The notes below the pieces were generated by a model. That model saw nothing but the letters and a program-made list of their open reading frames with translations. It was not told the DNA's origin and ran no database searches. The position numbers and the translations under genes were made by a program. Below, in pieces: positions 4,822 through 23,209 of a DNA stretch of 38,762 nucleotides. Source of the stretch: a virus. The stretch lies in IMG/VR virus record IMGVR_UViG_3300048905_000063, positions 1 through 38,762 of that record. One strand, given 5' to 3'. Position 1 is the stretch's first letter, and each line of letters starts with the position of its first letter.

Positions 4822-4827
4822 AGCTAT

Positions 4828-7264: not shown

Positions 7265-7486
7265 ATGAAAAGGCTCAGCCCAGAGATTATCGCCAAATTC
7301 GGGAGCATCCAAGCGATCTCCGATTTGGTCCATGCGCCACATTCCACGGTGAAAGCCTGGCGGTCGCGCATATCCGATTCCCGTCTGCATCATCTGCGCC
7401 TTGCGTCGATGGCGGCAGGGTTGGAGATTCCGTGGGACACGCTGGAAGACGCAGATCCGCTGCCCGACAAGAAGGAGGCAGCATGA
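7265..7486 (+). CDS. Cro-like small DNA-binding regulator (73 aa)
   Basis: Divergent from the repressor. FGSIQAISDLVHAPHSTVKAWRSR is an HTH-like segment. Its stop overlaps the next ATG (ATGA). Confidence 0.6.
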   Translation: MKRLSPEIIAKFGSIQAISDLVHAPHSTVKAWRSRISDSRLHHLRLASMAAGLEIPWDTLEDADPLPDKKEAA

Positions 7487-8688
7487 GCAAGCGCGTCTAT
7501 TTCCTTCGCCCTATTGGCCAGCTTGGGCCGGTCAAAATCGGCTGCTCTAAGTTTCCCGAATCCCGGCTCGACACATTCACCATTTGGTCGCCGCAGCGCC
7601 TCGAGCTGGTTTGCTCGGTTCCCGGCACACACAAGGACGAGCGCACGCTTCACGCGATGTTCGCCAAGCATCGGGTTCATGGTGAGTGGTTCGGCGCCAG
7701 CAAGGAATTGCTCGCGCTGATCGACCACTGCCAAACGGTCGGCGCGCTTCCGGCGCTTCCCGAGGTCGTCAGGTTTCCGGTGATCCGTCACGTCGGCCAT
7801 GCGCGCCGCGCCAAAGGAGTCCGCGAACCTCTCCCGCTGCCCGCTCACAAGTTGGCGATCGCCACGACGATGCGCGGCCAATACGAAAGCGGCCTCACCG
7901 CTTCTGCGCTGTCCGCGGAACACGGCATACAGATCCAAACGGTCTATAAGTATTTGCGTGCGGTCGGGACTGCGATGCGTCCTCGCGGGCCGGGAGCGGC
8001 GCCGAGCGGCGTAACTGACGTTGATCGCGCGACGGCGTGGCGGGACCGCTATCTGGCCGGCGAAACGCTCCAGCAGATCGCCGACGATTATGACGTGACT
8101 CGCGAGCGGGTGCGCCAAGTTCTCCGCAAGTTCGGTGTCGATACGCTTGGGCATCGTCCCGAGCATAGGAACCAGCCTGCCCCTCTCACCGAACAGCAAA
8201 AGCTGGCAGCAGAACTCTACGCCCAAGGCATCCGCCCCCTCGAAATCAAGAAGCGGGTTGGGTTCAAGCCTAGCATTAATCTGCTCACTAAGGCGGGCGT
8301 CGAGACGAAGCCGGTTGGTTCGTGGAACACTCGCCCTGACGACGCAGAGATCACCCGCACCGTCGCCGACCTCTACCGCGCCGGATTGCGGGCGAAAGAA
8401 ATTGTCGAGCGGGTTCCGGCGCTGCGCTATCCCGAAACGGTCTATCGCTATCTGAAAAAGGCCGGTGTCGCCGCGCGGCAGAAGGCGGCTAGCCCGCTCG
8501 CTCCGTTCGTCATCAGCCAGTTTCGGAACGGCGACACGCTCCAGGACATTGCCAAGCGCTTCGGCATCAGCCCGATGACCGTGCGCCGCTTGCTTGAGCG
8601 CAACGGCGTCACGAACATCGCAGAGGAATTGAAGCGCCGTCACGCTCGCGCCGTTTCCGCAGCCAACGCGCGCCGGAAAGCTGCATGA
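7483..8688 (+). CDS. T5orf172 (GIY-YIG-like) domain protein with five tandem HTH modules (401 aa)
   Basis: The ATG at 7483 is preceded by AAGGAGG. N-terminus VYFLRPIG..VKIGCS..R...ERTLHAMFAKHRVHGEWF. Five repeats end in (Y/L)Lxx(x)GV, for example GETLQQIADDYDVTRERVRQVLRKFGV. Confidence 0.7.
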   Translation: MSKRVYFLRPIGQLGPVKIGCSKFPESRLDTFTIWSPQRLELVCSVPGTHKDERTLHAMFAKHRVHGEWFGASKELLALIDHCQTVGALPALPEVVRFPVIRHVGHARRAKGVREPLPLPAHKLAIATTMRGQYESGLTASALSAEHGIQIQTVYKYLRAVGTAMRPRGPGAAPSGVTDVDRATAWRDRYLAGETLQQIADDYDVTRERVRQVLRKFGVDTLGHRPEHRNQPAPLTEQQKLAAELYAQGIRPLEIKKRVGFKPSINLLTKAGVETKPVGSWNTRPDDAEITRTVADLYRAGLRAKEIVERVPALRYPETVYRYLKKAGVAARQKAASPLAPFVISQFRNGDTLQDIAKRFGISPMTVRRLLERNGVTNIAEELKRRHARAVSAANARRKAA

Positions 8689-8921
8689 CCCTGCTCGGCT
8701 TCCTCGCGGCATGGTTCGAATTGCCCATCGCCACCGCCTGTCTGTTCAGCGGTATCGCTACTCGCGGAAAGCGCCTCGAACGCAAGCGCCTCGCACAATG
8801 GGAGGCGGATCGGTTTGACGTGATGGTCCCGGTCGCGCGGTTCAGCCCTATCCGGAATGGCGCTGTTAACTCCCATGCTGGAAACAATACAGTAACGGGG
8901 CGACACTGTAATGGCCGTTGA
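8685..8921 (+). CDS. Hypothetical protein with hydrophobic N-terminus (78 aa)
   Basis: ATGA overlap with the upstream gene. Confidence 0.45.
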   Translation: MTLLGFLAAWFELPIATACLFSGIATRGKRLERKRLAQWEADRFDVMVPVARFSPIRNGAVNSHAGNNTVTGRHCNGR

Positions 8922-9201
8922 TTCCGCCATATCGGACAGGTTGAAGCATCGTCAGCGCGTGATGTTTCGCGCCGCTGCTGACCGTGGCTTCTCGCAGAAA
9001 GTCATTCACTTCGACACAGGACTAAGCCTGTCGGTCATTGATGAGTATGCGCGCGGCGAGACCGCGATGGGCGGTCCATCAATACTTGCGCTCGCCAGTC
9101 TGCCCGAGTTCCCGGCTGAACTTATTAGTCTGCTGTTCGATGGCACTGGCCGGGCGGTGATCGACGAGCCCGCCGACAAGCTGATCGGGGGTGGGAAGTG
9201 A
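8911..9201 (+). CDS. Hypothetical protein, possible HTH (96 aa)
   Basis: FSQKVIHFDTGLSLSVIDEYARGE segment. 4-nt overlap with the methyltransferase gene. Confidence 0.5.
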   Translation: MAVDSAISDRLKHRQRVMFRAAADRGFSQKVIHFDTGLSLSVIDEYARGETAMGGPSILALASLPEFPAELISLLFDGTGRAVIDEPADKLIGGGK

Positions 9202-9854
9202 GCGCACCTGTCACGATAGGGCGGGCGACGCTGTATCTGGGTGATTGCCGATCCCTGCTGCGCGGCATGGGCAAGGCCGACGCGCTTGTTACAGACCCGC
9301 CCTACGGGATCGGGGCGGACAAGGGCGCTGGCAAGTCCGCCGAGAAGTGGTCCGCGTTTACCGGGTCCGCAACGTGGGACGACGCGCCGCTTTCCGAGGG
9401 TGACATCGACCTGTTGCTCGGCGCTGGACGCCACTGCATCATCTGGGGGGGTAACTACTTCCCGCTTCCCCCGTCAAACTGTTGGCTGATCTGGGATAAG
9501 GAAACGGCGGGCGTGACGACCTTCGCCGACGCCGAGGTCGCGTGGACGAATCTCGACAAAGCTATGCGGCTGAAGCGCCACCTATGGTCCGGCCCATACA
9601 TGAAGATCCGCGAAGAACGCCATCACCCGACGCAAAAGCCGCTGGCAATCATGCAGTGGTGCATCGACCAGCTGCCCGCCAAGGTATCCAGTGTCGTCGA
9701 TCCGTTCCTCGGGAGCGGAACCACAGGGGTCGCCGCCGTCATGGCCGGCAAGGACTTCGTGGGGATTGAGCAAGACGCGCGATATTTCGACATCGCCTGT
9801 AAGCGAATTGAGCAAGCGCAGCGTCAAGGCGACTTCTTCGTGAGGGCAGCATGA
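9198..9854 (+). CDS. DNA methyltransferase, beta-class N6-adenine/N4-cytosine type (orphan)
   Basis: LVTDPPYG (motif IV) precedes HPTQKP and VVDPFLGSGTTG (motif I). No adjacent restriction endonuclease was recognised. Confidence 0.85.
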   Translation: MSAPVTIGRATLYLGDCRSLLRGMGKADALVTDPPYGIGADKGAGKSAEKWSAFTGSATWDDAPLSEGDIDLLLGAGRHCIIWGGNYFPLPPSNCWLIWDKETAGVTTFADAEVAWTNLDKAMRLKRHLWSGPYMKIREERHHPTQKPLAIMQWCIDQLPAKVSSVVDPFLGSGTTGVAAVMAGKDFVGIEQDARYFDIACKRIEQAQRQGDFFVRAA

Positions 9855-10024: not shown

Positions 10025-10392
10025 GGCGGCAAGACGAATTTCGCCTGGCCTGCGTCGTCGCGGACTATCTTGCCCGAGCTTTGCCGGTCGAGGCTATCTG
10101 GACGCATTTCCCTGCTGGGGAGAACCGTAGCGCGATCACTGGCGCGCGCCTCAAGCGCATGGGCACGGCAAGGGGATGGCCCGACTATCTCATCATCTAC
10201 CGGGGCAAGCTGCTCGGCCTGGAGCTTAAGGCCGAGGGCGGTTCAGTCAGTCCCCATCAACGCCATATCGGGGAATCGTTCAAGGCGCACGGCTTCGACT
10301 GGTCGGTCATCAAATCAACCGAGGAAGTCGAGAAGTTCCTGACCAGACGCGGCATCCCGCTTCGCGCAACCGTGCTGGCGAGGGCGGCATGA
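10021..10392 (+). CDS. VRR-NUC domain nuclease (PD-(D/E)xK)
   Basis: GWPDYLIIYRGKLLGLELKAEGGSVSPHQ. Confidence 0.75.
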   Translation: MRRQDEFRLACVVADYLARALPVEAIWTHFPAGENRSAITGARLKRMGTARGWPDYLIIYRGKLLGLELKAEGGSVSPHQRHIGESFKAHGFDWSVIKSTEEVEKFLTRRGIPLRATVLARAA

Positions 10393-10973
10393 GAGCACCC
10401 TACGATCCTACATCGTCATGGGCCAAGCGCCACCGGCTGAACCGCCACTGCCCTTGCGGCACGCTGATCTACGACAAGTCCAAGAGCGGCCAGTGCAAGT
10501 CATGCTTCGCCTCCGCCCGCAACGCCACCGTCGAGCACCGCGCCAAGGTCAGCGAGGCGATGCGTCTCAAATATCGCCAAGACCCTCACTATGCCTCGAT
10601 GATCCGCACCAACCTTGCCGAGGGCAAGCGGGCATCGCTGAAAGACCCGGTAAAGCTCGCCAAGCAAATCAGGCAGGCGCGCATCAACATCGAGCGCACC
10701 AAGACACCGGAGGCCGTTGAGCGCCGCGAGGAAGGCAAGCGCCGCGCCTTGTTACCTTGGTGCCCTCGCGAACGGATCGAAGACTATCGCGCCCTAATGC
10801 GGAAAGGGCTTCGCGCCGCCGAGGCCAAGGCGCTGATTCTCGAAGAGATCAGGTTGGAACGGGCCAGGCTCTCGCCATTCGAGCGCCAGATGGCGAGCCT
10901 CGAAGCCAAAATGAAGCGCGGCGAGACGGCGCTGATAGCCTCGAACGATATGTTTCGGAGGCGCGCAGCGTGA
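10389..10973 (+). CDS. Hypothetical protein with N-terminal CxC...CxxC zinc-ribbon-like motif (194 aa)
   Basis: HCPCG...CKSC followed by a long charged helical region. 4-nt overlaps at both ends. Confidence 0.6.
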   Translation: MRAPYDPTSSWAKRHRLNRHCPCGTLIYDKSKSGQCKSCFASARNATVEHRAKVSEAMRLKYRQDPHYASMIRTNLAEGKRASLKDPVKLAKQIRQARINIERTKTPEAVERREEGKRRALLPWCPRERIEDYRALMRKGLRAAEAKALILEEIRLERARLSPFERQMASLEAKMKRGETALIASNDMFRRRAA

Positions 10974-11557
10974 GCTTCAACGTCGCCATGCTCGAAGAGA
11001 TGCAAGCGTCTGGCCTCGATCTAGAGGCAGTCATTCGCATCTTGCGCGCTGGTGAGGTTCGTAAAGACCCGACAGCCGCCGAACGCCAAGCGCGCCACCG
11101 CGAGAAGGTGAAGGCTGAGCGTGACATAGTAACGCGTGACGTAACGCGTGACGACGTAACGGAAACCCTTTCCCCCCACTCCCCCCCTAAAGTTTCCCCC
11201 GGACCCCCTACAAACACCCCCCCTATACCCCCCAAACCCGAAACTAATTTGAAGCGCGCGAGCCGTTTGCCGGATGGCTGGCGACCCGAAATGCTGACGG
11301 GCAAAGCGGCGGCGATGGTCCGCAACTGGCAAGCCGGGGAACTTGAACGGGAACTGGCGAAATTCCGCAATTTCTGGCTCGCAAAAGCGGGCAAGGACGC
11401 CTGCAAATCCGACTGGCAACGGACCTGGATCAACTGGCTCATTTCAGCCGACGAACGGAAACCACGAAATGGACGACAGCAACATCATCCCGATCTTGGC
11501 AAAAGCGGCCTCGCCTTCGCGATGCAAGGAAACCTTAGCGACGATCGCCCAATGTGA
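10970..11557 (+). CDS. Two-domain protein with Pro-rich linker; candidate replication-initiation-associated protein carrying the origin
   Basis: The GTG at 10970 (GGAGG 8 nt upstream) overlaps the upstream stop (GTGA). C-terminal ELAKFRNFWLAKAGKDACKSDWQRTWINWLI. Iteron-like repeats and a C-tract lie inside the linker-coding DNA. Confidence 0.5.
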   Translation: MSFNVAMLEEMQASGLDLEAVIRILRAGEVRKDPTAAERQARHREKVKAERDIVTRDVTRDDVTETLSPHSPPKVSPGPPTNTPPIPPKPETNLKRASRLPDGWRPEMLTGKAAAMVRNWQAGELERELAKFRNFWLAKAGKDACKSDWQRTWINWLISADERKPRNGRQQHHPDLGKSGLAFAMQGNLSDDRPM

Positions 11558-11951
11558 GGAGGCGCTGAAGCCATCCGGGGAGAAGTTCGGCACGGGTCAG
11601 CTTCTAGCCTGCCTCACCCTTGTCGCGCCTTCCGGGTTGACCGCTGGCGACCGCAACGAGTGGGTCCGGGTGGCGAAGGAAACACTGACCGGCATCCCCG
11701 GCGACCTGCTGCAATGGGGATGCCAGAAGGCGCGTGAGACGTGCCGTTTCCCGAGCGAAGTTGTCCCGACGATCATGGCCGAGGTGAAGGACGAATGGGA
11801 CCGCCGCCGCCGCGCGCTAGACCATGCCATCGCCGCCGAACACAATCGCCATGCGCCGCGCATCGAGCATAAGCGCGCCGAGCCCAACTATATCACGCCT
11901 GAAGAGTTCCGCGAGGCGCTCAAGGGCATCGTCGGGAACCTCACCGCATGA
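11469..11951 (+). CDS. Hypothetical protein (160 aa)
   Basis: Internal ATG (MDDSNIIPILAKAAS...). Overlaps the previous gene by 89 nt. Weak RBS. Confidence 0.5.
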   Translation: MDDSNIIPILAKAASPSRCKETLATIAQCEEALKPSGEKFGTGQLLACLTLVAPSGLTAGDRNEWVRVAKETLTGIPGDLLQWGCQKARETCRFPSEVVPTIMAEVKDEWDRRRRALDHAIAAEHNRHAPRIEHKRAEPNYITPEEFREALKGIVGNLTA

Positions 11952-12070: not shown

Positions 12071-12279
12071 AAAGCGGCTGGCTTGTCAGAAGGGAGACAT
12101 GGGCACTGTCGGTCATGGGCCTGCGGGTTGCGCCTTATACCGAGTTTCGCACCTACTGGTTTCGGTGGATGGCAGCGTTAGCAGCGTGGTCGGTTCGCGG
12201 CATAACTCCTGGCCCCGTCACACTTATCACGAGAGCACAAATCCTTGGCCGGGTCCGGCTTAAACAGGGGAAGAAATAG
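12067..12279 (+). CDS. Hypothetical Trp/Arg-rich protein (70 aa)
   Basis: ATGA-coupled to the micro-ORF. Its stop lies 1 nt before the next ATG. The competing ORF 12009..12263 lacks such coupling. Confidence 0.4.
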   Translation: MKSGWLVRRETWALSVMGLRVAPYTEFRTYWFRWMAALAAWSVRGITPGPVTLITRAQILGRVRLKQGKK

Positions 12280-12280
12280 C

Positions 12281-12805
12281 ATGGCCCGCACCAACAAGAT
12301 TCGCAAAGCCAGCGAAGATCCGGTCGCCAAGCTGGAACGGACCATCGTTCCCGAGGTCCAGGCTGGTCGCGGGCTCTACCTCATTGTCGATGCACCGACA
12401 TTCGCGGGCGAGGAAAACAAGGCTGGGTCAAAAGCCCGCACCTTGCGCAAATTGACCCGCATCGAAAAGCTGGAGCGCGCCAAGGTCATCAACAAGCGCG
12501 AGGCCGAGGCGTGCGAATGGTACGCCACACGCCACGCCGCTCGCTATGACGTGATAGGCATCACCGCCAAGTATGGCGAGCAAGCCAGCGGCGGGCGCAA
12601 GAGCTACTGCCACGGCCCCAAAACGCCCGAGCAAATCTCCGCCCTGCTCGACTATGACTTCGCCCGCGCCGGGATCAGCCCAATGATCCTGCCCATGTTC
12701 GAGCGCATCGTGATCCATGGGCGCCCGCTCGGGCGACTGGCCATTACCTTCCGCCAAGCCGCACGGGAGTTATTGGCACGACTCGAAAGCCGGGGTGCGC
12801 TGTAG
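12281..12805 (+). CDS. Hypothetical protein, last gene of the early-right operon (174 aa); candidate late-gene regulator by position only
   Basis: The internal ATG at 12281 is preceded by GGGGAAGAA. MARTNKIRKASEDPVAKLERT... Confidence 0.55.
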   Translation: MARTNKIRKASEDPVAKLERTIVPEVQAGRGLYLIVDAPTFAGEENKAGSKARTLRKLTRIEKLERAKVINKREAEACEWYATRHAARYDVIGITAKYGEQASGGRKSYCHGPKTPEQISALLDYDFARAGISPMILPMFERIVIHGRPLGRLAITFRQAARELLARLESRGAL

Positions 12806-13067: not shown

Positions 13068-13208
13068 ATGTTGGTTACGATCTTCCTCCTGATCGCATTG
13101 GCCCTGTTTATCCTCGCTGCCATGCCCAGGGTAGCGGTTGGCGGTATCAACCTCGTCCCCGCTGGCCTCGCTTTCGTGGTGGCGGCAATGCTTGTCCCGC
13201 TGCTGTAA
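13068..13208 (+). CDS. Small two-TM membrane protein (46 aa), below the track cutoff
   Basis: GGAG 7 nt upstream of the ATG. MLVTIFLLIALALFILAAMPRVAVGGINLVPAGLAFVVAAMLVPLL. Its TAA overlaps the terS ATG (TAATG). Confidence 0.45.
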   Translation: MLVTIFLLIALALFILAAMPRVAVGGINLVPAGLAFVVAAMLVPLL

Positions 13209-13537
13209 TGGCCGAGCGCCTACGCAAGATGCACCAGGACGATGTGCGGCTGAAGATCAAAACCAGTCAGCTTTTAAATCGCCTTTCAGATCATGCACTT
13301 AACGGCCTCGAAATGAGCGCGACCCAGATTCGCGCCATTGAGGTTCTGCTGAAGAAGGTTTTGCCCGACCTGCAAGCCATCGAACACAGCGGAGAGGTAG
13401 CGACAGGCCCAGCTTATGACCTCAGCGCAGTTGGCGACGAAGCCCTTGCCCAACTTGAAGGCGCTCTTGCAGCTTCCCGACCCGTTAGCGTTGGTACGAC
13501 AGGAAAGAGCAAGACGCGGCCTGATAGCGTTCACTGA
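13208..13537 (+). CDS. terS: Putative terminase small subunit
   Basis: Position immediately upstream of TerL. SATQIRAIEVLLKKVLPDLQAIEHSGE resembles small-terminase helices of podoviruses. Confidence 0.55.
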   Translation: MAERLRKMHQDDVRLKIKTSQLLNRLSDHALNGLEMSATQIRAIEVLLKKVLPDLQAIEHSGEVATGPAYDLSAVGDEALAQLEGALAASRPVSVGTTGKSKTRPDSVH

Positions 13538-14870
13538 GTATACCGCGCCGCAATATGTCAGCGCGGCGCATCACCAGTTGATCGCACGACGGCTTGAAGC
13601 GGTAGAACGGGGAGAGATTGACCGGCTGATGATTTTCATGCCGCCGAGGCATGGCAAGTCGGAACTGGCAAGCAAGCGTTTCCCGGCATGGTGCCTTGGG
13701 CGTAATCCTTCCCGCCAGATCATCGCGGCTTCGTACAACAGCGACCTGGCAAGCGACTTCGGCAGGAATGTCCGTAACATCGTGGCATCGCCTGAGTTCG
13801 GCGAGGTTTTCCCTGGCGTGGCGTTGGCGGCGGACAGCCAGGCGGCGAACCGGATGAACACGAACAAGGGCGGGGCTTATGTCGCGGCGGGCGTTGGCAC
13901 GGCGATCACCGGGCGCGGTGCCGACATTGCGCTGATCGATGACCCGTTTAAAGACCGCGAGGAGGCGGACAGCGAGCGCCGCCGGGACGTTGTTTGGGAT
14001 TGGTATCGATCGACGCTCTACACGCGGTTGATGCCGGGCGCGGCGATAGTGTTGATCCAGACTCGCTGGCATGAGGATGATCTGGCCGGGCGCTTGCTTG
14101 AACAGCAGCCCGATCAATGGACGGTGCTGGACCTTCCCGCGATCAGCAACGCGGGCGAAGCACTCTGGCCCGAATGGTATGACGTTCCCGCATTGGAGCG
14201 GATCAAGGCGAGTATCGGCCAGCGTGAATGGTCTGCCCTGTACCAACAGCAGCCGCAGCCAGACGAGGGCACCTTCTTCCAGCGAGGGTGGTTCAATGAA
14301 TGGCAACTGCCGCTGCCCAAACTGCGGATATACGGAACATCCGACTACGCCGTTACCGATGGTGGGGGCGACTGGACCGTCCACCGGGTCTGGGGCGTGG
14401 ACCCAGCCGACAACATATACCGCATTGATGGCTGGCGAGGGCAAACCTCTGCCGACAAGTGGATCGACGCAAAGTTAAAACTGATTGCCACGCACCACCC
14501 GCACGCATGGTTCGGCGAGGCGGGGGTTATTCAGAAGGCGGTCGAACCAATGCTCATTCGCCGGATGCGGGAATGCAACGTGCGCTGCCGGATGGAATGG
14601 GTGTCATCGATCCATGACAAGGCAACGCGGGCACGCGGATTCCAGGCGCGGGCATCGATGGGGAAGGTCTATTTCGAGCCGGGCGCGGACATCAGCGAGT
14701 TTCTGGTGTTCCCGGCGGGCAAGCATGACGACGAGGTTGACGTGGCGAGCTTGATGGGCCGGGTCTTGGATCAGGTCCATCCGGCGATTGTGAAGCCCGG
14801 CGGTGAGAACAAGCCGCGCGATATGTGGGCGACGCGCGATGCCGTCACAGCGGATTGGAAGGTAGCCTGA
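13416..14870 (+). CDS. terL: Terminase large subunit
   Basis: Walker A-like MPPRHGKSE. IALIDDPFKD. QTRWHEDDLAGRL. C-terminal nuclease-like HDDEVD. The only ATG start overlaps terS by 122 nt. Confidence 0.9.
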   Translation: MTSAQLATKPLPNLKALLQLPDPLALVRQERARRGLIAFTEYTAPQYVSAAHHQLIARRLEAVERGEIDRLMIFMPPRHGKSELASKRFPAWCLGRNPSRQIIAASYNSDLASDFGRNVRNIVASPEFGEVFPGVALAADSQAANRMNTNKGGAYVAAGVGTAITGRGADIALIDDPFKDREEADSERRRDVVWDWYRSTLYTRLMPGAAIVLIQTRWHEDDLAGRLLEQQPDQWTVLDLPAISNAGEALWPEWYDVPALERIKASIGQREWSALYQQQPQPDEGTFFQRGWFNEWQLPLPKLRIYGTSDYAVTDGGGDWTVHRVWGVDPADNIYRIDGWRGQTSADKWIDAKLKLIATHHPHAWFGEAGVIQKAVEPMLIRRMRECNVRCRMEWVSSIHDKATRARGFQARASMGKVYFEPGADISEFLVFPAGKHDDEVDVASLMGRVLDQVHPAIVKPGGENKPRDMWATRDAVTADWKVA

Positions 14871-14871
14871 T

Positions 14872-15093
14872 ATGACCAGCGACTATCGCCGCGACCATGA
14901 CCTGACCGTCAAGAATGACGAGTTCGACCGGCTTGCCGGATCGGCGCGGGCCAACATCATCGTCGCGGTCGAAAACTTCTCGGCGCTCTATCCGCTGCCG
15001 GTGGCAAGTGCGGGCGAGACGCTGGCGTTGAAGCGAGCGTTCGCACGGTATCTGATCGACAGCGGCAAGGCATCGGTGGCGGGGGTGGTATGA
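14872..15093 (+). CDS. Hypothetical protein between TerL and portal (73 aa)
   Basis: ORF with ATGA overlap with the portal gene. Confidence 0.55.
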   Translation: MTSDYRRDHDLTVKNDEFDRLAGSARANIIVAVENFSALYPLPVASAGETLALKRAFARYLIDSGKASVAGVV

Positions 15094-16895
15094 GCAACAC
15101 CGCGCCGCTTCCCGCCGAGAAGGACAAGTTCGATCTTGCTTACCTAAAGCGCCTCTACAGCGAGGCCCGCGACAACACCATGACGGCCCGCCTCGAAGCG
15201 GAAACGGCATGGGATTACTACGACGGCAAGCAGTGGACCAGCGAGCAGATTAAGGCGCTGCGCAAGCGCAAGCAGCCGGAGATCTGGGTTAACCGCATTG
15301 CCCCCGCCGTCAATGGCATCCTGGGCGTGCTGGAGCAGGGGCAGGCCGACCCGCGCGCTTTTCCCCGCAATGAGGAAGATGACGACGCCAGCGAGGTCGC
15401 TACCGATAGCCTGCGCTATGCCAGCGACGTGTCGCGGTGGCAGCGGACCAAGCTCCATGCGGCCAAGGCGTATCTGGTTGGCGGGGTTGCCGCTGTCATT
15501 GTCGAGGTCAACGAGGAGGGCGACCCGTGGCCGCGCATCATCCGGCAGGGTGAGTTCATCTATGACCCGCACAGCAGGGATTACGACTTTGAGGATGCCC
15601 GGTTCATGGGCGTCGCGAAATGGATGTATGTTGACGCGGTCAAGAAGCTCTATCCCGAGGCCGACATTGACCCGGAAAGCATCACGCCGACCAGCGTATC
15701 TTTTGACGATCAGGACAAGCCGCAAACGGGCTGGGCCGATGTCAAGCGCAACCGGGTGCTGGTGGTCGAATTATATCTGAACGAAGGCGGGTGGAAGAAG
15801 GTCTGTTTCTACGGCGGCGCGATCCTGTCCACCGGGGACAGTGAGTATCAGGACGAGAAGGGGCGCCCGTGCAACCCGATCGTCGCACAATCGTGCAACG
15901 TGGACCGCGATAATGGGCGTTACGGCATCGTCAAGGGCATGGTGCCCATTCAGGACGAGATCAACATGTCGCGCTCACGGGCGCTGCACATGCTCAACTC
16001 ACGCCGGGTGCAGATCACCGACGAGAGTGGCCCGGGCATTGATGCCAACACGATCCGCGAAGAGGCCGCGCGGCCTGATGGTATCTTGCCGTTCGGCGTT
16101 CAGGCGGCGGACAATGGCGACCTGACGCAAGGCCAGTTCAGTCGGATGCAGGAGGCAAAGGCCGAACTGGAACGGATGGGGCCGAACCCCGCTGTCCTGG
16201 GCCAATCCAACCTCAGCGCCAGCGGCCGGGCACAGTTGGTTCGTCAGCAGGCGGGTTTGACCGAACTAACCCCGGTGTTGGGCGGCTTGGAAGATTTGGA
16301 ACTGCGCGTTTATCGGCAAATGTGGGCGCGCATCAAGCAATTCTGGACCGAGCAGAAGACCATCCGCGTGACCGATGACATCGGTGCGGCGAAGTTCATG
16401 CAGGTGAACGAGCCTGAAGTGCAGGAAGTCCAGGGCATCGTCATGGGTCCGGACGGAAAGCCGCAGATCGGGATACAGCAAGTCGTGACGGGGGTAAAGA
16501 ACCGCCCCGCCGAGATGGACATGGACATCATCATCGACACGACGGCGGACACGGCCAACGTCCAGCAAGAACAATATACCGAACTGGTCAAGCTGGCGCA
16601 GGTCTATGGCCCGCAAGAAGTGCCGTTCGACGATATCTTGGAAGCCTCTAACCTGCCGCAGAAGCGCAAGATCATCGAAAAGCGCAAGTCGCGGATGGAG
16701 GAACAGGCGCAGCAGCAGCCGCCAGTTGATCCACGGATCGAGGCTGATGTGAAACTCAAGGACGCCAATGCGGCGCTGTCACAGGCGCGGGCCGAGGCGC
16801 AGGAGCTTCGCAACCGGCTTGAGGCGATTGGCGCCGCGCACATGATCGACGCCATTCCCGAGGTCGACAACGGTTTAGTAGCGGCGGCGGGTTAG
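15090..16895 (+). CDS. Portal protein
   Basis: 601 aa directly after TerL. AWDYYDGKQWT motif. Acidic/helical C-terminal barrel region. Confidence 0.8.
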   Translation: MSNTAPLPAEKDKFDLAYLKRLYSEARDNTMTARLEAETAWDYYDGKQWTSEQIKALRKRKQPEIWVNRIAPAVNGILGVLEQGQADPRAFPRNEEDDDASEVATDSLRYASDVSRWQRTKLHAAKAYLVGGVAAVIVEVNEEGDPWPRIIRQGEFIYDPHSRDYDFEDARFMGVAKWMYVDAVKKLYPEADIDPESITPTSVSFDDQDKPQTGWADVKRNRVLVVELYLNEGGWKKVCFYGGAILSTGDSEYQDEKGRPCNPIVAQSCNVDRDNGRYGIVKGMVPIQDEINMSRSRALHMLNSRRVQITDESGPGIDANTIREEAARPDGILPFGVQAADNGDLTQGQFSRMQEAKAELERMGPNPAVLGQSNLSASGRAQLVRQQAGLTELTPVLGGLEDLELRVYRQMWARIKQFWTEQKTIRVTDDIGAAKFMQVNEPEVQEVQGIVMGPDGKPQIGIQQVVTGVKNRPAEMDMDIIIDTTADTANVQQEQYTELVKLAQVYGPQEVPFDDILEASNLPQKRKIIEKRKSRMEEQAQQQPPVDPRIEADVKLKDANAALSQARAEAQELRNRLEAIGAAHMIDAIPEVDNGLVAAAG

Positions 16896-18032
16896 GTGGA
16901 GACCTATCAGGTTGTCCTCAATGGGCGACCAGTTCAGTTCCAAGTGCGCGATGGGGCGACGGACGAAGAAGTAAGGGCGGCAGGAGCAAGTCTTCTAGCG
17001 AAGGCGGGTTGGCAACACCCATCACAGCACGCTGTTTTACGTCCCCCGCCGTTCAATGCTTTCGCCCCACCTGAGACGGGGCAAGGCGGACCTCCGGTTA
17101 ACGCCATGACCGGACAGATACGCGATCAGGGGACAATAACCGAATATCAGCCGACGTTGCGAGACCGAGCGGCGGGATTCGTTGCTGATGGACTTGAAGC
17201 TGTCGGGTACGACGACCGCCACGCGGCACGGGTTGCCGACCGTGCCACGCAATTGCTGGACTGGACACCGTTAGGGAACGCCTTTGGCTTAGAGGAAGGC
17301 GCAAGCGATGTTTCGCGGGGCCTGAGAACTGGCGACTTAGCAACGGCCGGGCTGGGCGCGGCGACCTTCGCGGCGAGCGTGTTGCCGTTTGGTGGCGAGG
17401 TCAGAAAAGGCGTCAAGGCGGGCGAGAATGCTCTGGCACTCATGTTCCGCGACGAAAGCGGCGCAATTCGAGCATGGCACGGTTCGCCGCGTGATTTTGA
17501 CAAGTTCGATGCGTCAAAGATTGGCACTGGGGAGGGAAACCAAGCGTTCGGCGACGGACTATACTTCGCCGATCGTCGGGGTGTGGCGAGTAGCTATGTG
17601 GTGCCGAGGGGCGTGCAGCCGTTACCAGTTCCGCCAGAAACGCTTTCGGCCTTGCGTGATCCGCTCAAGGCAGACGGATATCTGGGCTACGATAGCCTTG
17701 GCGAGGCAGTGAACGCGGCCCGCCAATCAGGCGACAGACTTGCCGAGGATTACGGACTTTCCCCGGAGGTTGCGGCGCAGATTCAAGCCGCGCTGAATGA
17801 CTATGACGCGGCGCGCTGGCCCGAAGGGTATCGCCCGACACTTTATGAGACCGAGATTAACGCGGAACCGCACCAATTCATGGACCTTCCACGTGGCCAA
17901 GCAGCGCCATCGCCGGAAGTCGCCAAGAAACAGGGGTTTGTTGGTTTCCGCTACAAGGACGGCACCACAAACCCGTCTAGCAATTATGTGGTGTTTGACC
18001 CGTCGTTAGTCAGCATCCTGAAGAAGCATTAG
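16896..18032 (+). CDS. Head-module protein with C-terminal ADP-ribosyltransferase-like (polyvalent-protein ART-type) domain
   Basis: The GTG start abuts the portal stop. AWHGSPRDFDKFD, GDGLYFADRRGVASSY, LYETEI and C-terminal GFVGFRY...SNYVVFDPSLVSI. Confidence 0.5.
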   Translation: METYQVVLNGRPVQFQVRDGATDEEVRAAGASLLAKAGWQHPSQHAVLRPPPFNAFAPPETGQGGPPVNAMTGQIRDQGTITEYQPTLRDRAAGFVADGLEAVGYDDRHAARVADRATQLLDWTPLGNAFGLEEGASDVSRGLRTGDLATAGLGAATFAASVLPFGGEVRKGVKAGENALALMFRDESGAIRAWHGSPRDFDKFDASKIGTGEGNQAFGDGLYFADRRGVASSYVVPRGVQPLPVPPETLSALRDPLKADGYLGYDSLGEAVNAARQSGDRLAEDYGLSPEVAAQIQAALNDYDAARWPEGYRPTLYETEINAEPHQFMDLPRGQAAPSPEVAKKQGFVGFRYKDGTTNPSSNYVVFDPSLVSILKKH

Positions 18033-18160
18033 GCGGCTTGCCGCAAATACCGCCGCCGGGTTTCGGGCGTTTCGTCACCGCTGGACGCAATCAGCAGGCT
18101 CGCCGCCGGGGACCGGGCGCAACGTGAACGCCGCGACGATACAGCGAGCGAGGGGAAACC

Positions 18161-18907
18161 ATGGAAGACGAAGACTTTCTGGCGGCCGCGTTGGCCGATA
18201 CCAGTAGCGATGACGATCAGCCTATCGAGATCGCCCCGGAACCCAAGGCGGAAACGCCAGCGGAACCGGCCCCGGCACAGCCGGATGAATTGCTGCTCGA
18301 TACACCTGTAACGCCCGAACCTCCCAAGCAAGACGAGCGGCCTCCGCTCGCCGCGCTGCTGGACGAACGGGACAAGCGGAAAGCGCTTGAAGCCGAGCTT
18401 GCCCAATTACGGGCGGCACAACCGGCCCCACAGGTCCAGATGCCCGATCCGTATGAGGACCCGGAAGGGTTTGCTGCGGCGCAAGAGGCAAGAGTTTCAC
18501 AGGCGCTCTACCAGACCAATTTGCGTTGGTCCGAGCGTATCGCTTCCATCCAGCACGGCGAAGAAACGGTGAAGGCGGCAAAGGATTGGGGGTTCGCCAA
18601 GTGCGATTCCGACCCCTATTTCAATGCCAAGGTCGCCAGCTCGCCCGACCCCGTAGGATTTGTGGTCACTGAGTATAAGCGCGAGGAGATCGCGTCAAAA
18701 GTCACGCCGGACGAGTTCGCTCAATTCCAGGCGTGGAAGGCTGCTCAGGGCCAGTTGCAGCAACCGGGCGGGCAACCGCCTTCACCCCCTACGACCTCCG
18801 CGATCCCCCCTCGAAGCCTTGCCTCGGCACCATCGGCAGGAAACATCCTGACCGAGCCGGTCCAGAGCGACGAAGAGATGTTCAAAGAGGTCATCGGTAA
18901 AAGGTAA
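18161..18907 (+). CDS. Scaffolding protein (putative)
   Basis: Acidic, Pro/Ala/Glu-rich and helical, immediately upstream of the major capsid gene. Confidence 0.6.
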   Translation: MEDEDFLAAALADTSSDDDQPIEIAPEPKAETPAEPAPAQPDELLLDTPVTPEPPKQDERPPLAALLDERDKRKALEAELAQLRAAQPAPQVQMPDPYEDPEGFAAAQEARVSQALYQTNLRWSERIASIQHGEETVKAAKDWGFAKCDSDPYFNAKVASSPDPVGFVVTEYKREEIASKVTPDEFAQFQAWKAAQGQLQQPGGQPPSPPTTSAIPPRSLASAPSAGNILTEPVQSDEEMFKEVIGKR

Positions 18908-18912
18908 ATCCG

Positions 18913-20004
18913 ATGGCAGAAACTGTCCTTAATGCAGGTCTTGCGCTGACCAAATGGCGCAAGAACTATTTCAATACCTACATCCGGGCGTCGCGGTTCA
19001 AACCCTATATGGGTTCGGGCAACGACAACATCATTGTCACGATGTACGACCTTCAGTCGGACGCGGGCAAGACGATCATCGTGCCGTTTATCGGCGAACT
19101 CAGCGGCTCGGGCGTTTCCGGTTCGCAGGTTCTCGAAGGCAACGAAGAGAATCTTGGCTCGGGCAACATGCCGGTCACTGTCGATTGGCGGCGCAATGCC
19201 GTCATTGTTCCCAAGTCGGAGCAATACAAGACCGACATCGACCTGCTCGACGCGGCCAAGCCCGCGCTGAAGAACTGGGAATCGAAGGCCCTGCGGACGG
19301 ACATCATCCGTGAACTGGGCGCGCTGACCGTCAACGACGCGACGCTTTCGACGATCCCCTATGCCTCGGCAACGGAAGCGCAGAAGAACACCTGGCTCGC
19401 CCTCAACAGCGACCGAGTGCTTTTCGGCAAGGACAAGTCGAACAACGCCAGCAATGTCCATGCGACTTCGCTGCTCAACGTCGACACGACCAACGACAAG
19501 GCGACTTCCGCCATGCTTCTGAAAATGAAGCGCATGGCGGCGGATGCGAAGATCACGCCGTACCAGTCCGACCAGATGGCCGGGCAGGAGTGGTTCGTGG
19601 TGTTCGTCGGGCCGCGCGCGTTCCGCGATCTGGAACTCGATTCCACCATTGTTACCGCCGACACGAACGCTCGCGCTCGTGAAGGCAACGGCATCGAGAA
19701 CAACCCGATCTTCCAGGGTGGTGATCTGCTTTATCGCGGTCTCATCATTCGGCAGGAGCCGGAAATCCAGATGCTGGCCGGTGTCGGCAATGCCGGTTCG
19801 GACGTCGAGCCGCTGTATCTGTGCGGGGCCGGTGCGCTGGCCGTTGCATGGGGCCAGATGCCGCAGACCAAGACGCGCCTCGCCGATTACGACTTCCGCA
19901 AGGGGGTTGGCATCGAAGAATTGCTGGGGGTCAAGAAGATCCACCAGCTCGGCGTCCAGCGGTCGGTCGTCACTGGCTACGCCTCCGCATCGGCTGATGC
20001 CTAA
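18913..20004 (+). CDS. Major capsid protein (N4-gp56-like, HK97 fold)
   Basis: 363 aa. N-terminus LNAGLALTKWRKNYFNTYIRASRFKPYMG is typical of this capsid family. Position after the scaffold gene. Confidence 0.8.
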   Translation: MAETVLNAGLALTKWRKNYFNTYIRASRFKPYMGSGNDNIIVTMYDLQSDAGKTIIVPFIGELSGSGVSGSQVLEGNEENLGSGNMPVTVDWRRNAVIVPKSEQYKTDIDLLDAAKPALKNWESKALRTDIIRELGALTVNDATLSTIPYASATEAQKNTWLALNSDRVLFGKDKSNNASNVHATSLLNVDTTNDKATSAMLLKMKRMAADAKITPYQSDQMAGQEWFVVFVGPRAFRDLELDSTIVTADTNARAREGNGIENNPIFQGGDLLYRGLIIRQEPEIQMLAGVGNAGSDVEPLYLCGAGALAVAWGQMPQTKTRLADYDFRKGVGIEELLGVKKIHQLGVQRSVVTGYASASADA

Positions 20005-20028
20005 CCCCTAACTGAAAGGACTTGACTG

Positions 20029-20463
20029 ATGGCAACGTACAACAGCCTCCAAGTCACGAACAAGATGCCGGTTGCCAGCCATGGTCCGGCGTCATCGCTG
20101 AAGGGCGAGCATTTCCAGATTGCTCTGGGTGCGACCTCGGCGGCGGACGTGATCAACTTGGGGTATCTTCCCGACTACGCGGTGCCGGTGAAAGTCACCG
20201 TGTTCCACACTGCCGCAATCGCGCTGATCACGGTCGGCACGGTTGCGGCTCCGGCTGGCTACATCGCCAGCACGGCGGTTGTCGCCAACACCCCGCTGAC
20301 CAACACGGTCGGAACGGAGTTGTTCAAGAACGTCGGCCTCGGTCAGCGCCTTGTCACAGCGACGATCGGGACAGGCGGCGGTTCGGCGGGCACGCTCAAC
20401 GTCTTTGTCGAGTATCTCGTCGAAGATCCGGGCGCTGCCTATCCCTTCACCGCTGCAACCTAA
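20029..20463 (+). CDS. Virion structural protein, possible head decoration (144 aa)
   Basis: ORF directly after the capsid gene; Ala/Gly/Thr/Val-rich. Confidence 0.5.
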   Translation: MATYNSLQVTNKMPVASHGPASSLKGEHFQIALGATSAADVINLGYLPDYAVPVKVTVFHTAAIALITVGTVAAPAGYIASTAVVANTPLTNTVGTELFKNVGLGQRLVTATIGTGGGSAGTLNVFVEYLVEDPGAAYPFTAAT

Positions 20464-20476
20464 GGAGTGAGTTGAA

Positions 20477-20662
20477 ATGAAGGCAACTTACGTCGGCGAT
20501 ACGTCGATCCCCGCTTCCAAGCGGGATATCCCGGACGTCATGGAGACCCTTGGTCTCGTATTCGAGAAGGGCAAGGCGACGGACATTCCCCCCGCTCTGG
20601 AAGCAAAGCTGGCGGGCAATCCGCACTTTGAACTGAGCGGCAAGGAAACCGCAGCCAAGTAA
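20477..20662 (+). CDS. Hypothetical protein (61 aa)
   Basis: ORF with AAGGAG 8 nt upstream of the ATG, followed by a terminator. Confidence 0.5.
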   Translation: MKATYVGDTSIPASKRDIPDVMETLGLVFEKGKATDIPPALEAKLAGNPHFELSGKETAAK

Positions 20663-20668
20663 CGGTCA

Positions 20669-20700
20669 GGGCCGGGGGTAACACCTCGGCCCTTTCCTTC
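20669..20700 (+). terminator. Rho-independent terminator after the capsid block
   Basis: GGGCCGGGG-gtaaca-CCTCGGCCC (9-bp stem with one G-U) followed by TTTCCTTC. Confidence 0.6.
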
Positions 20701-20714
20701 CAGGGGAGAGCGCT

Positions 20715-21170
20715 ATGTCCGCTTCAAATACCTTCGAGGCGGCAATTCTCGCCCTCGTCTTCAATAACACGAACTACGCCAACATGGGCGATGCGACGGG
20801 TGTTCGCGGCTCGACCACGGCGGGCTCGTTCTACATCTCGCTGCACACGGCGGACCCCGGCGAAACGGGCACGGCGGTGACGAGCGAGGCGGCATATACC
20901 AACTATGCGCGGGTCGCGGTTGCACGGTCATCGGGCGGGTTCACGGTTTCCGGCACGGCGCCGACACAGGCTGCCAACGCCGCCGTTGTGACGTTTCCGA
21001 CCTGCGGCACGACCGGCGCGACCGTCACCTATTTCGGCATCTGCTCGACGGCATCGGGGGCGGGTGAGCTTTACTTCAGCGGTGCGCTGACCTCGCCCGC
21101 TTCGCTTGCCGTTTCCAACGGGGTGACGCCCTCGTTTGCCATTGGCGCGCTTGTCGTGACGGCCGACTAA
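20715..21170 (+). CDS. Virion structural protein (151 aa)
   Basis: ORF in the late operon. FEAAILALVFNNTNYANMGD...FYISLHTADPGETG. Confidence 0.55.
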   Translation: MSASNTFEAAILALVFNNTNYANMGDATGVRGSTTAGSFYISLHTADPGETGTAVTSEAAYTNYARVAVARSSGGFTVSGTAPTQAANAAVVTFPTCGTTGATVTYFGICSTASGAGELYFSGALTSPASLAVSNGVTPSFAIGALVVTAD

Positions 21171-21171
21171 A

Positions 21172-21774
21172 TTGGCCGATAACAGCACCCAGAATGGCGC
21201 GGACACGATCCGCGACATTGATCGGGCCGGAATCAAGACGCAGGTTGTCCAGTTGGACGCTGGCGGTTCGTCGGCGGAGGCGCTGGTCAGCAAGGCCGCG
21301 CCCTTGCCGATGTTCCCGGTTCACACTGGGGCGGCGTTCGTCAACTTCTCGGCTGTCGGTGCCGCCGCTGGCGCAACAACGGTTGAAACGGCAATAACAC
21401 TGACTCGCTCGGGATCGCCCGGCGCAACGGTGACGACCGGGACGAGTTTTACCGCCACGTCAGGCAAGCGGCTCAAGATTACCTCGATCACGTTCGCATC
21501 GCGCGGCCACGCCACGGCCACCGCACAGCTAACCGATTTCACCCTCCGCGTGAACACTGCGGGCGCGACCACCACAACCAGCGCGCAGGTGATCAAGGCC
21601 CGCACGGCTACTGCTGCCACGGCCCTCGCCTATGACCGGATCAGCATTCCGCTTGAATATGCTGGCATTGAGATCGTGGGCGATGGAACCCTTACTTTTG
21701 GAGTGACCGCAAATGCGGTTTTCACGACCAATGCCCCGACGTGGGACGTGCTGATCACGGGCATTGAATACTAG
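21172..21774 (+). CDS. Virion structural protein (200 aa)
   Basis: TTG-start ORF 1 nt after the previous stop; Thr/Ala-rich. Confidence 0.5.
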   Translation: MADNSTQNGADTIRDIDRAGIKTQVVQLDAGGSSAEALVSKAAPLPMFPVHTGAAFVNFSAVGAAAGATTVETAITLTRSGSPGATVTTGTSFTATSGKRLKITSITFASRGHATATAQLTDFTLRVNTAGATTTTSAQVIKARTATAATALAYDRISIPLEYAGIEIVGDGTLTFGVTANAVFTTNAPTWDVLITGIEY

Positions 21775-21784
21775 GGAGGCGTAA

Positions 21785-23209
21785 ATGAGCCTCCTGCTAC
21801 TAATTGGACGCAGCCCTGAACTGGTCATCAACGGCAACGGCGATGCGGTTACAGGCTGGGTCAATAATGACTCATCAACCTCAACAATCACCTCCGTTGC
21901 TAGCCGCCTTCGCATTACCAGCACGGGCGCTGGTGGCGGTACATGGAATGAAACCTATTCGGTCACAACGGGCCAAAGCTACCGCGTCCGCGCTACATTA
22001 TACCCGCACGAATTGGACCGCGCCCGTCTTTCGGTCGCGATTGGCGGTTCGACGATCCTCGTCAGATATTCCGATACCGTGGGTGGGGTCGTTGATTTCA
22101 CCTATGTCTCGGGCGGGCCGAGCAATATCATCACGCTGGAAGCGGCAAGCGGTTCGGCCTTTGTCAGCGTCGGTGAATATGCCGAGTTCGACGATGTTAG
22201 TGTCCAGGCCCTCGCGGGGGCAATAACCGGGTCGTCATCGCTCACCTTCGGGCAAACCGGGTCGGTAACCGGCGCCGGAACGCTGGCGGGAGCGCCGGGG
22301 CTGGTATTTGCGGCAAGCGCGGGTGAGAGCGCGGCGGGTGCCCTTGCAGGTGTCTCCGCGCTACTGTTCACGCCGACGGGCGGCGAGACGGCCAAGGGGG
22401 CACTCGCGGGCACGTCTGCGGGTCTGTTCGGGGCGAGCGGCGGCGAAGCGGCGAGCGGGACACTGGCGGGAACGTCGGCGGTATCGTTCGGCACAACGGG
22501 AACGGCAAACGCGCTAACGCCGGTTTCCGCTTCATCGGGAGTCCTGTTCGGCCAAAACGGGGCGCTAACCGCCAAGGGCGCGCTTGCAGGCACGTCGGCA
22601 GGACTGTGGACGGCAACGGGTACCGAAACCGCTTCGGGCGCGCTGGTGGGCACTACAGGGGTTGTTTTCGGGCAATCGGGGACAGCCAAGGGCGCGGCAA
22701 CACTCGTCGCGTCGTCCGCGCTTGGGTTTGGCCAAACTGGATCACTCGCCGCAAGCGGTTCACTCGCCGGGACTTCGACGGGGCTATGGGGCGCCAATGC
22801 AAGCGGTTCGACCTCGGGCGCCGTAACCGGGTCGGCTGGCATAGTATTCGGGCAAAGCGGGACCACGACAGCAATCGCGTCGGTCAATGCCTCCTCTTCG
22901 CTAGTTTTCGCATCTGCGGCGCTTTTGAGTGGAAATGCGGCCACCAACGGTTCGGCTGCGGTTACTTTCTCATCATCGGGCCTTATCTCGGCGCAAGCTG
23001 CGTCAACTGGAACCGCCAGTGTTGCTTTTGGTCCTGCTGGAACATTGACAGGTGTTGCGGCAATTCTGCCGATCGCGCCCCGGCCATTTGTCTTGCGGGC
23101 CATCGACCAAGGCCAGTCGAGCGGTTCGGGCCGCGCTTATTCGTCGGGCGCCGCGCGGTCACGATCCGCCGGTACAAGCCGCGCCTATAGTTCACGAAGG
23201 GGACGCTAG
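21785..23209 (+). CDS. Fibre-like protein: N-terminal jelly-roll/CBM-like domain plus about 13 tandem 20-aa repeats
   Basis: The N-terminus ends in YAEFDDVSVQ. Repeats then follow of the type GGETAKGALAGTSAGLFGAS. Confidence 0.65.
   Translation: MSLLLLIGRSPELVINGNGDAVTGWVNNDSSTSTITSVASRLRITSTGAGGGTWNETYSVTTGQSYRVRATLYPHELDRARLSVAIGGSTILVRYSDTVGGVVDFTYVSGGPSNIITLEAASGSAFVSVGEYAEFDDVSVQALAGAITGSSSLTFGQTGSVTGAGTLAGAPGLVFAASAGESAAGALAGVSALLFTPTGGETAKGALAGTSAGLFGASGGEAASGTLAGTSAVSFGTTGTANALTPVSASSGVLFGQNGALTAKGALAGTSAGLWTATGTETASGALVGTTGVVFGQSGTAKGAATLVASSALGFGQTGSLAASGSLAGTSTGLWGANASGSTSGAVTGSAGIVFGQSGTTTAIASVNASSSLVFASAALLSGNAATNGSAAVTFSSSGLISAQAASTGTASVAFGPAGTLTGVAAILPIAPRPFVLRAIDQGQSSGSGRAYSSGAARSRSAGTSRAYSSRRGR
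22215..23045 (+). repeat. In-frame degenerate tandem repeat, 60-nt period, about 13 units
   Basis: An aromatic-Gly dipeptide (FG/WG/FA/FT) recurs every 20 residues. Confidence 0.75.

Follow-up and report, generated by a model that had tools for sequence, protein, structure and literature searches.

Does the open reading frame (ORF) that lies between the portal and scaffolding protein genes of the virus record IMGVR_UViG_3300048905_000063 (IMG/VR) encode an ADP-ribosyltransferase (ART) that travels in the virion, and what could such a protein do with an asparagine in the place of the catalytic glutamate? The analysed stretch, called the window below, comprises all 38,762 nucleotides of the record, and the 378-residue product of the ORF (the ART gene in Table 1) served as the query. 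An initial annotation, made from the DNA letters, had read it as a candidate packaged and ejected ART-like effector. The ORF and all residues and motifs quoted there (H195, Y223, E318, E320 and N363) proved exact, with AWHGSPRDFDKFD starting at residue 193, GDGLYFADRRGVASSY at 219, LYETEI at 316, GFVGFRY at 347 and SNYVVFDPSLVSI at 362. We found that the gene is a divergent new member of an already annotated family, ART-PolyVal, and the assignment of the query to this family and fold is close to certain. The idea of a packaged effector gained support at the virion level from gp5 of Sulfitobacter phage phiGT1 and from fusions with T7-like internal virion proteins, but it was not new. The ART-PolyVal domain, its location by portal and head genes and its predicted packaging and injection have been described (Iyer et al. 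2017, PMC5512222; Iyer et al. 2022, PMC9503650), so that a packaged effector had already been published for portal-adjacent ARTs.

The ART fold of the C-terminal half

The Pfam model PF18760 (ART-PolyVal, "ADP-ribosyltransferase in polyvalent proteins") matched the whole protein with 29.6 bits (E 1.4e-6), just under the curated gathering threshold of 31.2 bits, and the ART domain alone (aa 185-378) with 32.4 bits (E 1.8e-7); 106 of the 109 aligned relatives matched it as well. An exhaustive HMMER search retrieved 9827 cluster representatives (clusters at 50% identity) at E<=1e-3 and 3590 at E<=1e-10, the family ranging in size from "solo" proteins of 250-450 aa to polyvalent proteins of 1000-5500 aa. 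The likeness of the query to the family lies well outside what chance would give. Its nearest relatives were P0002 and P0003, with 47-49% identity. A polyvalent protein is, by definition, a single chain that combines at least two effector domains unrelated to each other (Iyer et al. 2017, PMC5512222). One effector domain was recognisable in the query in the searches of Pfam, PHROG, NCBIfam and PADLOC, which makes it a solo version and not a polyvalent protein. The NCBIfam and PADLOC searches gave no hits, and phmmer against the PDB sequences returned a single chance match to a beta-lactamase.

The full protein was modelled by AlphaFold2 with a predicted local distance difference test score (pLDDT) of 75.7, and the domain (aa 183-378) with a pLDDT of 88.8 and a predicted template modelling score (pTM) of 0.80. 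Foldseek comparison of the domain with the PDB yielded almost exclusively members of the ART superfamily, led by tankyrase-1/2 (probability 0.99-1.0) and followed by PARP1 and diphtheria toxin, with cholix toxin, exotoxin A, RES toxins, PARP14 and KptA further among the matches. In BFVD, the collection of predicted viral structures, 27 matches were obtained at E<=1e-3, many of them named ART-PolyVal. The strands of the model follow the order seen in tankyrase-2 (191-197, 222-225, the helical insert at 247-307, 315-321, 328-331, 350-354, 362-366 and 372-377), and an insert of similar length is typical of the solo homologs (median 79.5 aa).

Among the PDB sequences, the family profile matched solely the chains of tankyrase-2 (TNKS2), with an E of 1.6 that is not significant alone. 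The profile segment yHGSP fell on FHGSP of tankyrase-2 and aYGhGLYFAenegvAksY on MFGAGIYFAENSSKSNQY (the tankyrase-2 sequence was verified against the PDB). In this alignment H195-G196-S197 corresponds to H1031-G-S of TNKS2, Y223-F-A to Y1060-F-A and Y234 to Y1071. Local hhalign against tankyrase-2 gave an E of 3.6e-4 for the N-terminal half of the domain and a confidence of about zero for the C-terminal part, where the register of N363 rests on strand order and local similarity. The C-terminal consensus peptide had no match in the PDB. The global mode of hhalign was also tried with tankyrase-2; its alignment was meaningless and was discarded.

The residues of the putative NAD pocket are strongly conserved. 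Position 195 is His in 120/120 homologs and in 304/304 domain instances, position 223 is Tyr in 119/120 homologs, and Y234 follows 11 residues later. The query keeps H195, G196, S197, Y223, F224, A225 and Y234, and the sole difference from tankyrase-2 among the aligned pocket positions is A231, which replaces the nicotinamide-binding Ser. The PF18760 match, the Foldseek results and the motif alignment with tankyrase-2 thus bear out the first reading of the C-terminal half as an ART-fold domain of the H-Y type.

Among the families suggested for comparison in the initial annotation was Tpt1, and KptA was present once in the Foldseek list (rank 38, E 1.3), which would fit an RNA 2'-phosphotransferase of the Tpt1/KptA type. 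Tpt1 enzymes are defined by an Arg/His set that is not evident among the conserved positions of the query family; furthermore, Pfam PTS_2-RNA (PF01885) gave no hit, and the conserved motifs H-G-S and G-x-Y-F-A are of the PARP type. This alternative is effectively rejected.

Asn363 and the candidate catalytic residues

The local similarity between S-N-Y-V-V-F-D of the query and A-E-Y-V-I-Y-R of PARPs places N363 at the position of the catalytic Glu. The initial annotation had presented this Asn as an oddity of the protein; the residue was correctly read, but it is invariant across the subfamily. Asn was found at this position in 119/120 aligned homologs and in 214/214 recognisable third-motif instances among 256 proteins. 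It was also present in gp38 of Burkholderia phage AMP1, in phiGT1 gp5 and in each of the tandem ART copies of the metagenomic protein P0126 (RNFVIY, RNYVVF, SNLVIF...). Judged from the alignments, the absent catalytic Glu is a trait of the whole subfamily and not of this gene. Because Asn is invariant at the Glu position, catalysis, if any, must use another acidic group (D355, E213 or the substrate), and for the same reason ART-PolyVal chemistry cannot be copied simply from PARPs or toxins.

The two glutamates of the LYETEI motif, E318 and E320, proposed initially as alternative acidic residues, had to be abandoned. Position 318 is Glu in 86/120 homologs (Lys in 18, Gln in 13) and position 320 is Glu in only 14/120, and because of this poor conservation neither is a substitute catalytic residue. 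The register in which hhalign paired M-Y-E-V with A-E-Y-V-I-Y was likewise rejected, as strands 3-4 would then be missing from the ART core and as E318 is only 72% conserved, with Lys and Gln as alternatives.

The near-invariant acidic residues kept in the query are D355 (117/120), E213 (115/120), D202 and D205. The ART-PolyVal site as published consists of His in strand 1, Tyr in strand 2 and Asp in strand 5 (Iyer et al. 2017, PMC5512222), and for the last of these the query offers D355 and D368 (82/120, at the end of the N-Y-V-V-F strand). In the predicted structure D355 stands at the end of the fifth strand and is the obvious candidate for the published Asp, with the mapping being ambiguous; another near-invariant Asp, D332, is Pro in the query. 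The N4-type prototypes of the family (RPP1, R7L and PunY3) have G-Y-D-G where the subfamily of the query has G-I-P-G, the Asp of this motif being Val in the query, and Glu or Gln at the place of N363 by manual reading, in a column that is ambiguous in the MAFFT alignment. In these prototypes, of which RPP1 was read over aa 1018-1148 of its virion RNA polymerase (vRNAP), G-Y-D-G precedes the fifth strand and Glu or Gln opens the sixth, again by manual reading. Within Pfam PF18760 there thus appear to be at least two configurations of the active site, and the abundant subfamily of the query, to which practically all motif instances recognisable in the 256 best matches belong, is best written H-Y-(D)-N.

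An amide residue at the Glu position also brings to mind NAD+ glycohydrolases and other NAD-consuming enzymes, since the tuberculosis necrotizing toxin (TNT) is an ART-fold NADase with Gln at this place, and the RES-domain NAD-degrading toxins were among the Foldseek matches. Nevertheless, tankyrase and PARP1, the best structural matches, are transferases, neither Pfam nor phmmer against the PDB gave a match in sequence to TNT or RES families, and a phage that depleted NAD+ on entry would damage its own replication. We consider an NADase very improbable.

Probable virion association, possible activity and insertion of the gene

The evidence for packaging comes from relatives of the query. The phiGT1 protein gp5 (QLB38217; 27% identity to the query, E 1e-19) is encoded in the order portal-gp4-gp5-gp6-scaffold-capsid. 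It was detected by mass spectrometry in purified virions with 12 spectra and a ratio of spectral counts to molecular weight (SC/MW) of 0.29, the portal reaching 0.67 and the authors' contamination level being <0.2 (PMC10386132, Table S3). In addition, the T7-like phages AMP1 (of Burkholderia) and RS-PI-1 (of Ralstonia) have the ART domain embedded in their internal virion proteins, and it also occurs in N4-like virion RNA polymerases, e.g., that of Roseovarius phage RPP1. Among the 49 viral contigs having an upstream neighbour of the ART gene, this neighbour was a portal gene in 12, with two unrelated portal families represented, and the remaining recognised neighbours encoded mostly head, adaptor, terminase or endolysin proteins. 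In the metagenomic genome of P0017 a terminase gene and a gene for a 690-aa protein precede the ART gene, and in those of P0008 and P0004 the ART gene is found between the genes for capsid and adaptor. Association of the query protein with the virion is likely on these grounds.

Upstream of the ART domain the protein comprises two parts. A predicted beta-beta-alpha unit (aa 1-40) is common to P0010, P0004 and others, and the conserved helical module (aa 77-184) carries the motif D-x-T-P-x-G-N at aa 122-128, in which P125 and G127 are invariant. The module includes a Gly/Ala-rich hydrophobic helix, LATAGLGAATFAASVLPFG (aa 148-166; 17337-17393), with a Kyte-Doolittle value of 1.42, below the usual transmembrane cutoff. 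A basic patch comes after this helix, which recurs as a conserved element in the N-terminal modules and might make contact with membranes or proteins. The N-terminal helical module had no hit in Pfam, PHROG or NCBIfam, a search with the N-terminal module alone recovered only the query itself, and a profile built of 19 such modules recovered only 5 proteins, with P0257 as the only informative fusion case. In P0257 (287 aa, metagenomic) an N-terminal module as in P0008 runs up to 'GAIRAYHG' and is continued by a different ART-like body that ends with '...ADQIAVLD'. The sequence gives the impression that the effector body was swapped while the module in front of it stayed constant, and it hints that the module is portable. 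The much larger P0126 (1796 aa, metagenomic) has the beta-beta-alpha unit and the helical module followed by four tandem ART-PolyVal copies and further domains, and by this domain order it is a polyvalent version of the query protein.

With the family, the fold, the conserved residues, the setting of the gene and the detection of one homolog in virions as the established points, we lean, by a little more than even chance, to a packaged and ejected accessory virion ART that acts on a host or defence target. The query would be an accessory two-part virion protein of a temperate P22-like podophage, with the N-terminal ~185 residues incorporating it into the procapsid near the portal and the C-terminal ~195 residues providing an NAD-binding ART fold of the PARP/diphtheria-toxin (H-Y) type. 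Few copies would be packaged in the head and would enter the cell along with the DNA. Early in infection the domain would then take NAD+ as the donor for ADP-ribosylation of a host or defence target, by mono-transfer and not polymerisation, and with an acidic group other than position 363.

Several points weigh against such a scheme. The virion data come from phiGT1 gp5, a homolog only 27% identical to the query. Packaging, ejection, NAD use and the target are what we infer for the query, ejection of solo members in general is putative, and the role of the N-terminal module in virion incorporation is proposed from its position only. In the literature searched, no biochemical study of any ART-PolyVal member was found. 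The Foldseek values against the PDB were weak (E ~0.015, template modelling score ~0.41). Finally, Asn stands in place of the catalytic Glu, and in PARP1 and the toxins altering this Glu sharply lowers the activity.

The divergence of this copy belongs among these points as well. When positions at least 90% conserved among the homologs were taken as near-invariant, the query kept 32 of 38, and only 3/119 homologs kept fewer. The six losses are V319T, D332P, P349V, S358T, R359N and G360P. The loop from D355 to N363 is 4 residues shorter than the family consensus and lacks Ser, Arg and Gly at positions where they are found in 113/120 (S358), 115/120 (R359) and 108/120 (G360) of the family; H199R and H220D are further rare states (0.9% and 2.4%). 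P0002 and P0003 keep canonical residues that the query has lost. The query belongs to the lowest ~3% of the family for conserved positions, and it may therefore be inactive or of altered specificity. Since its loop stands at the place of the acceptor/ADP-ribosylating turn-turn (ARTT) loop of other ARTs, the changes there suggest an altered target or reduced activity. We put the chance that this copy is catalytically active slightly below even.

Replacement of the catalytic Glu by Asn, the absence of D332, P349, S358, R359 and G360 and the shortened loop would all be accounted for by a catalytically dead ART-fold protein with a structural or binding role, for instance as a portal-proximal minor head protein, like SPP1 gp7 at its portal, or as a sensor that binds NAD/ADP-ribose. 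The location of the gene directly after the portal, which is the position of minor head proteins of the MuF/gp7 type, would suit this explanation too. However, the His, Tyr, Asn and other residues are near-invariant over thousands of clusters, including the tandem copies of polyvalent proteins, which suggests an active or ligand-binding site. Conservation of 95-100% (H, Y, N363, D355, E213, D202 and several Gly) in a family of ~9800 clusters is not the pattern expected of a decayed domain, and the core residues of the NAD pocket are intact in the query. The protein is also not a core structural part, because Pseudanabaena phage Pam1, a close relative, assembles without a counterpart. A dead domain therefore seems to us rather unlikely.

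Alternatively, the protein could be an active enzyme that is never packaged but made late, together with the head proteins, and that acts in the infected cell, where it would modify host or phage proteins like T4 ModA/ModB or shield the machinery of packaging. In favour of this, the gene is part of the late operon, and no promoter-like or + strand terminator-like site was detected in the scanned region 16700-18300, which covers both gene junctions and the 128-nt gap after the ART gene. As an alternative, head-linked ARTs have been considered to act against immune systems directed at portal or terminase (Iyer et al. 2022, PMC9503650). The detection of the phiGT1 homolog in virions speaks against an unpackaged enzyme, as does the covalent inclusion of the domain in virion RNA polymerases and in internal virion proteins, and we regard it as distinctly improbable.

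A bolder version of the packaged-effector proposal, and an unlikely one in our estimate, is that the H-Y-N subfamily consists of virion-delivered non-canonical enzymes, with the N-terminal module as a portable packaging/ejection signal for swapped ART bodies and the query as a loop variant with a different target. Their chemistry could, for example, be a substrate-assisted or Asp355/Glu213-dependent ADP-ribosylation, possibly with nucleic acid or a defence component as the acceptor.

The coordinates of the gene, its domains and its neighbours are collected in Table 1. The GTG start codon of the ART gene directly abuts the portal stop codon (TAG followed at once by GTG). Public gene calls (JGI and Logan) begin the gene at ATG codon 71 and leave 210 nt after the portal (16896-17105) uncalled. 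Homologs P0145, P0151, P0162 and P0213 align to the protein from residue 1-5, and P0010 has 'METYQV' in common with it. Therefore the GTG at 16896 is the likelier start, and the public 308-aa protein is probably shortened by 70 residues.

Table 1. Features of the window relevant to the ART gene (positions in nucleotides of the window; residues numbered from the GTG start).
Feature	Position	Strand	Details
Integrase	892-2166	-	
NinB/Orf recombination mediator	2927-3565	-	
DNA methyltransferase	9198-9854	+	
Portal gene, P22-type	15090-16895	+	PF16510, E 1.3e-99; phrog_156
ART gene	16896-18032	+	378 aa plus stop; GTG start
N-terminal mini-domain, aa 1-40	16896-17015	+	AlphaFold2: strands 2-8 and 11-17, helix 23-36; pLDDT 80-88
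Conserved helical module, aa 77-184	17124-17447	+	Alignments; AlphaFold2 helices 88-184
ART-PolyVal (ADP-ribosyltransferase-fold) domain, aa 185-378	17448-18029	+	PF18760, AlphaFold2, Foldseek
His195 codon	17478-17480	+	Strand 1, H-G-S; aligned to FHGSP of TNKS2
Tyr223 codon	17562-17564	+	Strand 2, G-L-Y-F-A; aligned to GIYFAENSSKSNQY of TNKS2
Helical insert, ~80 aa (aa 236-314)	17601-17837	+	Between strands 2 and 3; helices 247-259, 267-286, 290-307
Asp355 codon	17958-17960	+	End of predicted strand 350-354, start of the loop before N363
Shortened, diverged loop, aa 356-362 (GTTNPSS)	17961-17981	+	Replaces consensus QGSRGAGxGSS
Asn363 codon (AAT)	17982-17984	+	Opens strand N-Y-V-V-F, at the place of the PARP catalytic Glu (E-Y-V-I-Y)
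Scaffolding protein gene	18161-18907	+	34% identity, E 8e-29 to the annotated Pam1 scaffolding protein

The ORF downstream of the ART gene had no family hit in the profile searches and owes its identity to the homology with the Pam1 scaffolding protein, by which the placement of the ART gene between portal and scaffold is correct. The gene for the major capsid protein (PF13252; 36% identity to that of Pam1) comes next. Judged by portal, scaffold and capsid, no cultured relative is closer than Pam1; its scaffold gene directly follows the portal without an intervening gene, and the block is otherwise syntenic with the window. The G+C content at third codon positions (GC3) is 0.61 in the ART gene versus 0.74-0.79 in the terminase, portal and capsid genes (13416-16895, 18913-20004). 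Because it is absent from the Pam1 interval and has the lower GC3, the ART gene is an accessory insertion and not part of the assembly core, and it looks like a later, moron-like insertion into a conserved portal-scaffold-capsid block. A near-identity DNA search with the portal-to-capsid block against phage genomes gave no match.

The gene set of the window (integrase, NinB, methyltransferase, TerL, portal, scaffold, capsid, adaptor, head-closure and ejection-protein genes) identifies it, on gene content, as a temperate P22-like podophage, the temperate lifestyle being deduced from the integrase, the NinB/Orf recombination mediator and the DNA methyltransferase. The ORFs 4291-5334, 7390-8712, 10389-10973, 11343-11951 and 12245-12805 had no PHROG hit. 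Another ORF without a PHROG hit, 21785-23209 (474 aa), lies between the genes of the small head proteins and the adaptor and consists mostly of ~20-aa repeats rich in Gly, Ala, Ser and Thr (TRF period 60 at 22379-22491); it may encode a fibre or decoration protein. A separate assembly (Logan SRR35925476, 38,665-bp contig) showed no difference from the window in the 8.9 kb compared (13106-22032). The occurrence of the same phage in separate samples, in assemblies of near-equal size, suggests a complete genome.

ART-PolyVal is among the most abundant predicted effector domains of phage virion proteins, and if these are injected ADP-ribosyltransferases, they would represent a widespread first-strike mechanism of podophages comparable to that of T4 Alt. 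Biochemical work on the family would be worthwhile, and a canonical relative such as phiGT1 gp5, which comes from a cultured phage and is known in virions, would be the better experimental entry point. The query gene itself adds little beyond one more, divergent member and a clean insertion into the conserved portal-scaffold-capsid block. What is new here is the subfamily-wide Asn, the dismissal of E318 and E320, the acidic candidates D355 and E213, the rebuilt loop before N363, the link to a virion-associated homolog and the insertion relative to Pam1.

Comparison with known systems

The query shares with PARPs and tankyrases the H-G-S motif, G-[LI]-Y-F-A-[ED] with a Tyr 11 residues on, the strand order and the terminal x-Y-V-[VI]-[FY] strand. 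It differs from them in having Asn for the catalytic Glu, Ala for the nicotinamide-binding Ser and the 80-aa helical insert, and it is devoid of the helical regulatory domain. T4 Alt, an ART that is carried in the head and injected together with the DNA, is a functional precedent (Iyer et al. 2017, PMC5512222). It belongs, however, to the R-S-E (Alt/VIP2) clade, whereas the query belongs to the H-Y clade without sequence relationship to it: no hit of the query to Pfam ADPrib_exo_Tox or ART was found, and its motifs are of the H/Y and not the R-S-E type. Unlike the query, T4 Alt is directed to the head by a capsid-targeting sequence that is cleaved, in a prohead that contains a protease.

MuF/gp7 proteins are low-copy head proteins, often with C-terminal effectors (Iyer et al. 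2017, 2022). The query resembles MuF/SPP1 gp7 in being encoded immediately after the portal, and the likeness is positional only. Since the query had no Phage_Mu_F (PF04233) hit at E<=1, its N-terminal module is an unrelated, unannotated sequence family.

Closer parallels are found within PF18760. AMP1 gp38 and the RS-PI-1 'structural protein P5' match the same Pfam family and have the subfamily motifs, including S-N-Y-V-L-F; the RPP1 vRNAP, the family prototype of Iyer et al. (2017), also shares the Pfam family. In all three phages the ART carriers are virion or ejected proteins, with the domain situated inside multi-domain proteins of 1600-3800 aa, in contrast to the single-effector query of 378 aa. 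The phiGT1 protein gp5 combines, like the query, an N-terminal region with a PF18760 domain that has the ~80-aa helical insert. Unlike the query, it keeps H199, H220, D332, P349 and the Ser and Arg of the loop and has a second insert, and the phiGT1 genome has the extra gene gp4 between the portal and gp5. Both proteins carry the motifs H...Y...D...N-[YF]-V-V-F, and both are encoded in the portal-to-scaffold interval.

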